IMG/VR virus record: IMGVR_UViG_2534681934_000023
Origin: a virus
Taxonomy: Duplodnaviria; Heunggongvirae; Uroviricota; Caudoviricetes
Reading direction: 5' to 3' (one strand)
Length of the DNA: 24,660 bases
A program made the position numbers. Positions 1 to 3,000 of this stretch are shown here, in pieces (the stretch's first letter is position 1; the number at the start of each line of letters is the position of its first letter).

Positions 1-3000
1 ATGTTATCATCTTGTATTGGGGTGGTTATGAAGGATGGTGCGCTGCTCAGGAGTTCTTCACTTTTTATTGCCTACATGGGATGCCTTGGATGGGGGAGTG
101 CTTATTTCTATGGATGGGGTACTTCTTTTTACTACGGCTTCCCATGGTGGATTGTAGGTGCAGGTGTTGATGATGTTGCCAGAAGTTTATTTTTTGCAGT
201 TATCGTCATTGCTATATTTCTTATCGGTTGGGGTATTGGTGTTGTATTCTTTTTCGCAGTGAAAAGAAAACATTCTATGCAAGAGCTAAATGTATTTCGC
301 CTTTATTTTGCTGTGGAATTATTGTTTGTGCCGGCAATTATTGAGTTTTCTATATTGAGACAGAAGATTCAGGTACCTCTTTTGCTACTGTCAGCAGCGA
401 TTGCGCTGGCGGTTACAATTTCGATAAGATCTTATGGGCGATTTTTATCGGTATCATGCTTCTATGATAAGCCATTTATAAAAAAACATTTTTTTGAGAT
501 TGTGATGATTGCTTTTGTGGCATATTTCTGGCTTTTTTCATTTCTGACAGGATATTACAAACCACAGTTTAAGAAAGAATATGAAATGATTAATTATAAT
601 GATGGTTGGTATTATGTTCTTGCTCGTTATGATAATTGTCTGGTTTTGTCTACTTCTTTCAATGCAGGTAGTAAAAGGTTTGTCATTTATCAATCAGCAC
701 AAGATAAGAATCTTCAGGTTGATATTGTAAGGACCAGAATTTAATTGGCTGCATAAATAATATTTTAAGTTGCAAGTTGGCTATTCGTAGGAATAGAACC
801 TTAGGCATGCTGAATGCGTTTCCTGAACATTGTTTTATAAACTGTGTCTGCTTGCTGTTGTGATCCTGCTTTTAGTGATGGTGATGATGGATTTCACCAG
901 CAGGATAATGTTGGTACTGACTGATGGCGCTCTGGTCTGCGGCATTGTGGTATTGCTGTGGCCGATGATGAAAGAACAGAATGAATAATTCTTGACTTTT
1001 TTGTTTACTGTTTATTAAAAAATCAACCGCATGGTGAATCCTCCTTGGAGGGGCTAAATGATCGAGTTTTAAGGGCACGTAGCGAGTTCTGTTTGATCAT
1101 TGCAGAACTTAGCGGGAGGCGCCATGCGTACATCACTAATGTTATTTCCTTCTATCATTTTCCTTGTGAGTTCTGGCTGCGCATGGCGCGGCCTTTTTTT
1201 TATGACCTGCCACTGGCAGATGGTCATCCTGTGATTTGATTCCGGTTCCGGCTTTTTAACTCTGTTCCTGTACACGGGAGAAATTCTATGTCGATTAATC
1301 GTTATGATATTGGTTACAAGAAGTACCACGTATTGTGTTGAGATAGAAAGCATGGTGCCAGAGGTAAATGCAGCAGCATAATAAAAAAGAGCCAGCGCAG
1401 AAGAGAACGGGTAAAAGAGTCTGCGCTGGCGTGGGGATATTCCCCGTGGAGAAATGATATGTAACACACATCGGGAACCTTTCTATATAAACATTATCAT
1501 TATTGTCAATCATAACAGTCAGGTATTATGACGTTTATGCATCAGGGCCATCAGGAATTAACTGGTGGCTTTTTATTGTTGTCAGCTTCCGGATAACGGG
1601 AGACGGGGTATGTACCAGATGGAAAAAATAACAACAGGTGTGTCATACACCACGTCAGCGGTGGGGACGGGATACTGGCTACTGCAGTTGCTGGACAAAG
1701 TCTCCCCATCCCAGTGGGTGGCAATAGGCGTATTGGGTAGCTTGGTGTTTGGCTTGCTGACGTATCTGACAAACCTTTATTTCAAGATTAAAGAAGATAA
1801 GCGTAAGGCTGCGAGAGGTGAATAATGTCGCCATCATTACGCAAGGCTGTTGCTGCTGCTATTGGTGGTGGGGCTGCTGCCATAGCGTCTGTGCTCATCA
1901 CTGGTCCGAGTGGTGACGATGGCCTGGAAGGTGTCAGCTACATACCATACGAAGATATCGTTGGCGTATGGACTGTATGTCACGGACACACCGGAAAAGA
2001 CATCATTCCCGGTAAAACGTATACCGAAGCAGAATGCAAAGCCCTCCTGAATAAAGACCTTGCCACGGTCGCCAGACAAATTAACCCGTACATCAAAGTC
2101 GATATACCGGAAACAACGCGCGGCGCTCTTTACTCGTTCGTTTACAACGTGGGCGCTGGTAATTTCAGAACATCGACGCTTCTTCGCAAAATAAACCAGG
2201 GTGATATCAAAGGCGCATGTGATCAGCTACGGCGCTGGACATACGCTGGCGGTAAGCAATGGAAAGGGCTGATGACTCGCCGCGAGATTGAGCGTGAAGT
2301 CTGTTTGTGGGGGCAACAATGAGCAGAGTAACCGCGATTATCTCCGCTCTGGTTATCTGCATCATCGTCTGCCAGTCATGGGCGGTTAATCATTACCGTG
2401 ATAACGCCATCGCCTATAAAGAACAGCGTGATAAAAAAGTCAGTGAGCTGAAGCAGGCGACCGCCACCATTACTGACATGCAGCAGCGCCAGCGTGCTGC
2501 TGATGCACTCGATGCTAAATACACGAAGGAGTTAGCTGATGCGAAAGCTAAAAATGATGCTCTTCGGCGCAAGCTTGATAATGGTGGTCGGGTGTTCGTC
2601 AAAGGAAAATGCCCTGTGCCATCCTCAGACGAAACCTCCAGCGCCTCCGGCATGGGCAATGATGCCACCGTCGAACTCTCTCCAGTTGCTGGACGAAACG
2701 TTCTCGGTATCCGGGACGGAATTATCCGCGACCAAACAGCACTGAGAACGCTTCAGGAATACATCAGGACGCAATGCCTTCGATGATAGCGATAATTTTA
2801 CTCATCATCCTTCACATCTGGCTCTGTAGACAGGGTGGTGCTCACTTCTGGAGTGAATCATGGTTAAACATCTCATTGCTGATGCTTGATATTGAGCATC
2901 TGGCGCGCGGTAAGGGGCTGCGTTGAGATAAGAGCCAGTCATTAAAAATACCTGGATTTAGCCTCGCATTCGCGGGGCTTTTTTATTGCCATTACAAAAG

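Follow-up and report, generated by a model that had tools for sequence, protein, structure and literature searches.

The region just upstream of the lysis genes was analysed in a stretch of viral DNA of 24,660 nucleotides (IMG/VR record IMGVR_UViG_2534681934_000023, Caudoviricetes), referred to as a whole as "the window". A TTGACT hexamer, an A/T-rich block and an intrinsic terminator delimit positions 992 to 1201 of its + strand. The terminator hairpin reads GGCTGCGC-ATG-GCGCGGCC (1175-1193; 8 pairs, seven of them G-C and one G.U) and is followed by T8 at 1194-1201; the ATG of a pinholin gene, at 1610, lies 409 bp 3' of the terminator end. The original prediction had described these same signals (TTGACT at 992-997, an A/T-rich -10 candidate, an 8-pair stem with T8 at 1175-1201, about 410 bp before the holin), and all of them are confirmed. 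It had also interpreted the pair as a pR'-tR' late promoter with a 6S-like leader, which proves to be wrong: the element exhibits no significant similarity to the pR' sequences compared. We conclude, with a probability of about 93%, that the promoter-terminator pair at 992-1201 is the known prophage small RNA (sRNA) gene pasD1, designated EcOnc13 in Escherichia coli O157, and not a late promoter. This gene has already been described in the literature, and nothing in its identification is new.

When both PasD loci of enteropathogenic E. coli (EPEC) E2348/69 are aligned, window positions 992-1240 match its PasD1 locus with 100% identity. The annotated PasD1 RNA, NC_011601 (+) 1060260-1060432 (173 nt; table S6 of Pearl Mizrahi et al. 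2021, PMC8550237, where EcOnc13 is given as the homologue in enterohaemorrhagic E. coli, EHEC), corresponds to window positions 1029-1201. Its start at 1029 agrees with the predicted self-contained short transcription unit starting at 1025-1035. The published Northern probe for PasD1 is CATGCGCAGCCAGAACTCACAAGG (PMC8550237), and its exact complement is found at 1162-1185. In EPEC, this identical sequence was defined as an sRNA by RNA-seq, ligation and sequencing of interacting RNAs (RIL-seq) and Northern blot; the RNA is associated with Hfq and expressed in virulence-inducing medium, and the RIL-seq partners of PasD include aceE, uspA, yhdW, gltI, cesF, tir and bfpB (PMC8550237). The 226-bp PasD1 unit is conserved with at least 99% identity in 563 complete E. 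coli records.

For EHEC, Tree et al. 2014 (PMC4104026) reported EcOnc13 as a peak in Hfq cross-linking and analysis of cDNA (Hfq-CRAC) on the + strand of prophage Sp3 of strain Sakai, with a Northern band of ~187 nt. EcOnc32 is located ~240 bp beyond it on the - strand of Sp3, with a band of ~112 nt (PMC4104026). The published EcOnc32 probe matches positions 1437-1471 of the window exactly, and the spacing and orientation of EcOnc13 (+) and EcOnc32 (-) in Sakai Sp3 are the same as those of the two units in the window. With an offset inferred from EcOnc32, the EcOnc13 peak would be placed at ~1139-1189. The EcOnc13 probe listed in the supplement of that paper (PMC4104026) has no match in the region, so the EcOnc13 assignment rests on the coordinates and on the EcOnc32 probe. 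EcOnc13 is named in supplements only, no mention of it being found in the main text of the papers. Convergent sRNA pairs between moron coding sequences and the lysis region, 3' of pR', were described in Sp3 and in other lambdoid prophages (PMC4104026).

The gene order points in the same direction. PasD loci carry Q and LpxR upstream, and Esr41-like matches are common beside PasD (Zhu, Shabalina and Storz 2026, bioRxiv 10.64898/2026.05.13.724894). According to the same work, a holin/lysozyme operon adjoins PasD1 loci, and a sialate esterase gene intervenes at PasD2 loci. At the present locus Q and LpxR are both found within 10 kb upstream, and the holin/lysozyme operon is directly adjacent.

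Scanning for signals is less informative. Within positions 1-4000, promoter-like sites number 5 (7.1 expected) and terminator-like sites 7 (4.3 expected), neither being in excess over shuffled sequences; pattern matching alone therefore cannot establish a promoter-terminator pair. Given the conservation and the published transcripts, the pair is real, beyond chance. As to its -10 hexamer, we infer the choice between TTAAAA and TAAAAA (Table 1).

The fold of the predicted transcript is consistent with the sRNA assignment. The seed UGUGAG is largely unpaired in the minimum free energy (MFE) fold and wholly unpaired in the centroid fold, and the PasD target motif CUCACA pairs with this predicted seed (Fig. 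S5 and table S7 of PMC8550237). Two base pairs of the internal helix are altered on both strands between STnc100 (GGAUUCAG/CUGAAUUC) and PasD, one from G-C to A-U and the other from U-A to A-U; these double compensatory changes were picked out by hand. As modelled, the long closed 5' domain, the U-rich linker bearing the seed, and the terminator hairpin with its U-tail make up the usual anatomy of an Hfq-binding sRNA.

Table 1. Features of the pasD1 region and of its flanks in the window
Feature	Position	Strand	Basis or remark
247-aa membrane-protein open reading frame (ORF), first gene of the moron cassette	1-744	+	no Pfam family; window starts at its ATG
DUF3927 (TciB-like) small membrane ORF, last coding gene of the moron cassette	830-988	+	Pfam PF13064, E 3e-14
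-35 hexamer TTGACT of the pasD1 promoter	992-997	+	direct reading; conserved in the family
A/T-rich -10 region TATTAAAAAAT	1013-1023	+	direct reading; same in PasD and bona fide STnc100
Candidate -10 hexamer TTAAAA	1015-1020	+	17-nt spacer
Candidate -10 hexamer TAAAAA	1016-1021	+	18-nt spacer
PasD1 small RNA, 173 nt, homologue of EHEC EcOnc13	1029-1201	+	identity to E2348/69 PasD1
Structured 5' domain	1029-1127	+	MFE and centroid fold, z = -2.07
Closing helix, GCAUGGUG with CGCCAUGC	1029-1036 with 1120-1127	+	found in 64/64 unique family sequences
Internal helix, GAGUUCUG with CAGAACUU	1084-1091 with 1103-1110	+	MFE and centroid fold
Predicted seed UGUGAG	1165-1170	+	within U-rich single-stranded linker 1128-1174
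Intrinsic terminator of pasD1, 8-pair stem, 3-nt loop, T8	1175-1201	+	hairpin -15.2 kcal/mol
Convergent sRNA, EcOnc32, Esr41-like	1381-1486	-	5' end inferred
Promoter-like site CTGACT-18-GATAAT of the convergent sRNA	1522-1493	-	promoter scan
Phage-21-type pinholin	1610-1825	+	PF04971
Signal-arrest-release (SAR) endolysin	1825-2322		after the pinholin; followed by Rz and the small and large terminase subunits

PasD1 and PasD2 have been described as diverged relatives of STnc100 (bioRxiv 10.64898/2026.05.13.724894). In agreement with this, the Rfam scan returned a match to STnc100 (RF02076) over the full model length at 999-1204 of the + strand (37.7 bits, E 2.3e-6). Bona fide STnc100 copies, in phages Evi and PPyecE, score 120-145 bits; these sit in the same position as PasD1, after a TciA/TciB-type cassette of TciA/TerB plus a small ORF, and the convergent partner of the PPyecE copy is AgvB. 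In 933W a family member is located 87 bp after stxB2. PasD is a diverged sister group of STnc100 rather than a member of it, a conclusion reached in the same preprint as well.

We collected the family by searching viral contigs with a 24-base pattern, which gave 120 loci; 127 elements were analysed, including six further loci. Of these, 47 belong to the PasD type and 79 to the STnc100 type; the viral loci yield 64 unique sequences. Common to the family are TTGA(C/T)T-(15 nt)-TATTAAAAA, a variable spacer of 7 nt, the invariant 5' end GCAUGGUGAAUCC and the closing strand C(A/G)CCAUGC. The -35 hexamer is TTGACT in PasD and TTGATT in STnc100, at a fixed spacing in nearly all of the 64 unique sequences. 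This conservation is informative because the hexamer was outside the search pattern; that of the TATTAAAAA block within the pattern-found set is uninformative, since the block belonged to the pattern. The block is nevertheless kept between PasD and the STnc100 copies that pass the gathering score and were found independently. In the 195-nt class of STnc100, the terminator sequence is identical to that of pasD1. A looser pattern with 16 specified bases (GCATGGTGAATCCNCCT), applied to genome contigs, gave little besides chance matches in unrelated phyla and was discarded.

The distance from the Q stop codon to the sRNA start ranges from 796 to 4472 bp over the 82 family elements with a recognisable upstream Q, which belong to three Q families. 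For PasD loci with an identifiable Q it is 1211-1291 bp, with two ORFs between. In these sequences, the PasD/STnc100 unit always ends a moron cassette and never adjoins Q.

The Q gene was predicted to lie beyond the window, and it does. Its context was taken from O157 genomes with a 100% match to window positions 1-7000; for one of them, strain 319, a base-by-base comparison of positions 1-1700 also showed identity. In these O157 genomes a Q82-type antiterminator gene (229 aa, PF06323) ends 183 bp before position 1. A promoter-like TTGCAA-17-TATACT straddles the Q stop codon, an extended -10-like sequence TGgTATGTT is found ~9-14 nt past the expected start of this Q-proximal promoter, and a 9-pair hairpin with T7-8 begins ~27 nt past the same start. 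The region aligns element for element with the annotated pR'/qut/terminator of 933W. Its layout agrees, too, with what has been published on the phage 82 pR' pause, where an extended -10-like sequence is recognised when the transcript has reached a length of 21 and pausing occurs at +25. By this analogy, the true pR'/tR' of the phage most probably adjoins the gene for the Q82-type Q, at 110-200 bp before position 1. The likeness to a lambdoid pR'-tR' that had been seen in the pair holds for the Q-proximal region, with its 933W layout, but not for the pasD1 unit itself; at the sequence level the true pR' is found elsewhere, where a promoter, a pause-like element and a terminator adjoin Q.

In prophage PP4 of E2348/69, the identical PasD1 unit is found behind a lambda-type Q (PF03589) instead. 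The PP4 region 3' of this Q significantly resembles lambda pR' (score 64, versus 19.6 +/- 3.6 in shuffled sequences, with 0 of 1000 shuffles matching it), and the PasD1 unit is ~1.2 kb downstream of this lambda-like pR'. The PasD promoter and 5' region exhibits no such resemblance: against the pR' of lambda, the lambda-like one of PP4 and the 82-like one, 172-210 of 1000 dinucleotide shuffles score as high (p ~0.2). A descent of PasD/STnc100 from a duplicated pR'-6S leader was considered, TTGACTT...TCAAC..ATGG..AAT looking alike by eye, and was rejected, as the alignment is no better than those of shuffles. In PP4 (1480-2933 of the compared locus), the homologue of the 82-type terminator is degenerate, and the next terminator-like site is that of pasD1, 1.3 kb downstream; at the PP4 junction, a lambda-type Q/pR' module seems to have been joined to the 82-type cassette by recombination.

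A number of points weigh against the identification of the pair as pasD1 and of the Q-proximal region as the late promoter. The consensus scan made no promoter call at 992-1023, where the -10 is poor, because no hexamer at 16-18-nt spacing fits a rule that includes T at position 6. The RNA start at 1029 was set from RNA-seq coverage in EPEC, another strain, and not from 5'-end mapping. The fold z-score of PasD1, -2.07, is modest; RNAalifold, run on a MAFFT alignment of 15 unique 5' domains in which the 3' strand of the closing helix was misaligned, returned one covarying pair. The STnc100 match of 37.7 bits falls below the gathering score of 47 bits. In published RNA-seq, the PasD level is not lowered in an hfq deletion strain (PMC8550237), and it is therefore less evident for PasD than for PasA, PasB and PasC that stability depends on Hfq. 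Finally, the Q-proximal pR' was assigned by its layout and by analogy, not by experiment on this phage.

Three other readings of the transcript have to be weighed against these points. That the pair is, after all, the late promoter pR' with its qut site and a Q-dependent tR', giving a 6S-like leader and allowing Q to switch on the lysis and structural genes from here, would explain a -35 of TTGACT as in lambda pR', and a terminated transcript of ~173 nt placed upstream of the holin and similar in size to the lambda 6S RNA. A sigma-dependent pause is conceivable from the sequence, CATGGT at +2 to +7 matching the -10-like pause hexamer at 3 of 6 positions, A2 and T6 included; this stretch is also accounted for as one strand of the conserved closing helix. 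In lambda the distance from Q to the promoter is ~80 bp, and in 933W the promoter is within ~80 bp of the Q 3' end or overlaps it, whereas the PasD1 unit is separated from Q by two ORFs and ~1.2 kb, and the elements in the 933W layout adjoin Q upstream of the window. Each Q protein acts at cognate sites of its own, and one fixed PasD1 sequence is therefore unlikely to serve both of the unrelated Q families (PF06323 in O157, PF03589 in PP4) behind which it is found; the covariation with a cognate Q that a pR'-qut-tR' region would display is absent from PasD1, as is any significant similarity to the lambda, lambda-like or 82-like pR'. Moreover, uninduced cultures of EPEC and EHEC contain the PasD1/EcOnc13 RNA in abundance, and it has many mRNA partners on Hfq (PMC8550237; PMC4104026). 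We regard a late promoter at this position as highly improbable. Somewhat less so, though still very unlikely, is that the PasD1 RNA is a fragment processed from the 3' untranslated region (3' UTR) of the moron mRNA, the TTGACT being incidental. The unit begins just 4 bp past the DUF3927 stop codon, its terminator would end the moron transcript too, and both the weak -10 and the 5' end drawn from coverage rather than from primary-end mapping leave room for processing. Against it, PasD and STnc100 alike retain the -35 hexamer at the same distance from the A/T-rich block, and the 7 nt before the RNA 5' end vary freely between two fixed flanks, as expected of a start-site spacer. In 933W the upstream gene is a different one (stxB2), although the match there starts at the RNA 5' end and excludes the promoter region. 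In Salmonella LT2, RpoD signal in chromatin immunoprecipitation with exonuclease digestion (ChIP-exo) has been reported at STnc100 promoter regions.

The third reading, in which the region encodes a small protein (a sense ORF of 62-64 aa or an antisense ORF of 132 aa) and the promoter and terminator serve its mRNA, is hardly credible at all. It draws on database annotation: the phage 434 record has a "putative membrane protein" over the PasD unit, and RefSeq has WP_012578864.1 (132 aa) on the opposite strand (1069-1467, -). However, the sense ORF (64 aa, 1045-1239, +) has a TTG start and extends through the terminator hairpin, and a 1-nt indel between PasD1 and PasD2 shifts its frame, leaving unrelated C-terminal halves. 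The antisense ORF covers the two sRNA genes, and at the PasD2 locus it is a pseudogene with a frameshift. For neither ORF was a Pfam family found above threshold. The protein annotations over pasD1 and EcOnc32 are probably artefacts.

With the pair taken as pasD1, the unit may work as follows. In the lysogen, pasD1 would be transcribed from its own sigma-70-type promoter (992-997 and 1013-1023), starting at ~1027-1029 and ending at the terminator 1175-1201, to yield the 173-nt RNA. On Hfq, this RNA would pair with mRNAs containing CUCACA, as the Hfq association and the seed reported for the identical sequence suggest. The gene forms the 3' end of the moron cassette (the membrane-protein ORF and the DUF3927 ORF), which has the true late promoter on one side and the lysis genes on the other. 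To reach the holin, late transcripts all have to pass the terminator at 1175-1201, a point on which the original prediction stands. Upon induction, RNA polymerase modified by Q would read from pR' through tR', the cassette and the pasD1 terminator into S-R-Rz. In the lysogen, the same terminator may also act as an insulator, halting ahead of the holin the transcription that comes from the moron and sRNA promoters.

Whether the pasD1 terminator also works in the late operon as a barrier that depends on Q is a further matter, and we consider it possible but rather doubtful. If it does, in PP4-type prophages it would be the effective tR', because the scan found no terminator-like site between the lambda-like pR' and the pasD1 terminator there; the moron genes would then be constitutive from pR', and it would be the terminator of an sRNA gene that keeps the lysis genes off. 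In the lineage of the window, which has a separate terminator after pR', its role would be limited to that of a second barrier and of an insulator.

When a promoter-terminator pair immediately precedes lambdoid lysis genes, it thus need not be pR'-tR'. In EHEC and EPEC prophages, the site before the lysis genes holds convergent genes for Hfq-binding sRNAs that end moron cassettes, and the true late promoter sits tight against the Q gene. Automatic annotation misses these sRNA genes, and RefSeq and the phage 434 record place doubtful ORFs over pasD1.

Among the neighbouring genes, the DUF3927 ORF has a counterpart annotated as TciB in phage 434. The convergent unit gave an Rfam match to Esr41 (RF02676) at 1381-1470 of the - strand, with 32.3 bits, not reaching the gathering score of 102. 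The fold z-score of this EcOnc32-like RNA is -6.6, with a strong terminator hairpin (20-nt loop) and a U-run, which the terminator scan missed. Further downstream, the + strand exhibits another terminator-like hairpin at 1544-1582 (11 pairs, -15.7 kcal/mol, a T-rich tract of ~10 nt, TTTTTATTGT at the 3' end of the stem), ending 28 bp short of the holin ATG; late transcripts would meet a third barrier there. The phage 434 record has a terminator ~45 bp upstream of its own holin, in a region not homologous to 1544-1582.

The 3' side of the terminase genes carries an insertion of the IS3 family, 1310 bp long (10489-11798), bounded by 25-nt terminal inverted repeats (TGAACCGCCCCGG...). It contains orfA (10543-10869), orfB (10866-11756) and an apical loop-internal loop (ALIL) frameshift pseudoknot at 10824-10940 (Rfam, 121 bits). 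This element looks like IS629. In O157:H7 PV15-279 (9852-14871 of the compared locus, versus window 3601 onward), this prophage is cut short just within the gene for the small terminase subunit. The truncated version, present in some O157:H7, runs into tail-fibre remnants and nleB2, nleC, nleH1-1 and nleD; the window represents the version with intact terminase and portal genes, as in strain 319.

Compared with known systems, the unit is closest to PasD1 of E2348/69, to which it is identical from the -35 hexamer through the terminator; seed, terminator and synteny are the same, and the two loci have in common Q and LpxR upstream, holin/lysozyme downstream and an Esr41-like convergent partner. 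Within the RNA, PasD2 and the phage 434 copy depart from PasD1 at five columns of the alignment, four being substitutions and the fifth a 1-nt deletion, or by four mismatches in the count of the papers (PMC8550237; bioRxiv 10.64898/2026.05.13.724894). Unlike PasD1, the PasD2 and phage 434 loci have a sialate esterase gene that separates the sRNA from the holin. STnc100, among whose copies is one located downstream of stx2B in Stx2 phages, has the same promoter block, 5' end and closing helix as PasD and the same place in the late operon, after a moron cassette, but the interior of its 5' domain and its single-stranded seed region are different. The pR'-qut-tR'/6S region of lambda and its counterpart in 933W resemble PasD1 in combining, within the late region, a constitutive promoter with a strong terminator and a short stable RNA; the short pR' transcript of 933W is reportedly the StxS sRNA. 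Their terminator, like that of pasD1, must be overridden by Q-modified polymerase for the lysis genes to be expressed. In contrast to them, the PasD1 unit stands apart from Q, exhibits no detectable pR'/qut similarity, and remains unchanged behind unrelated Q families.

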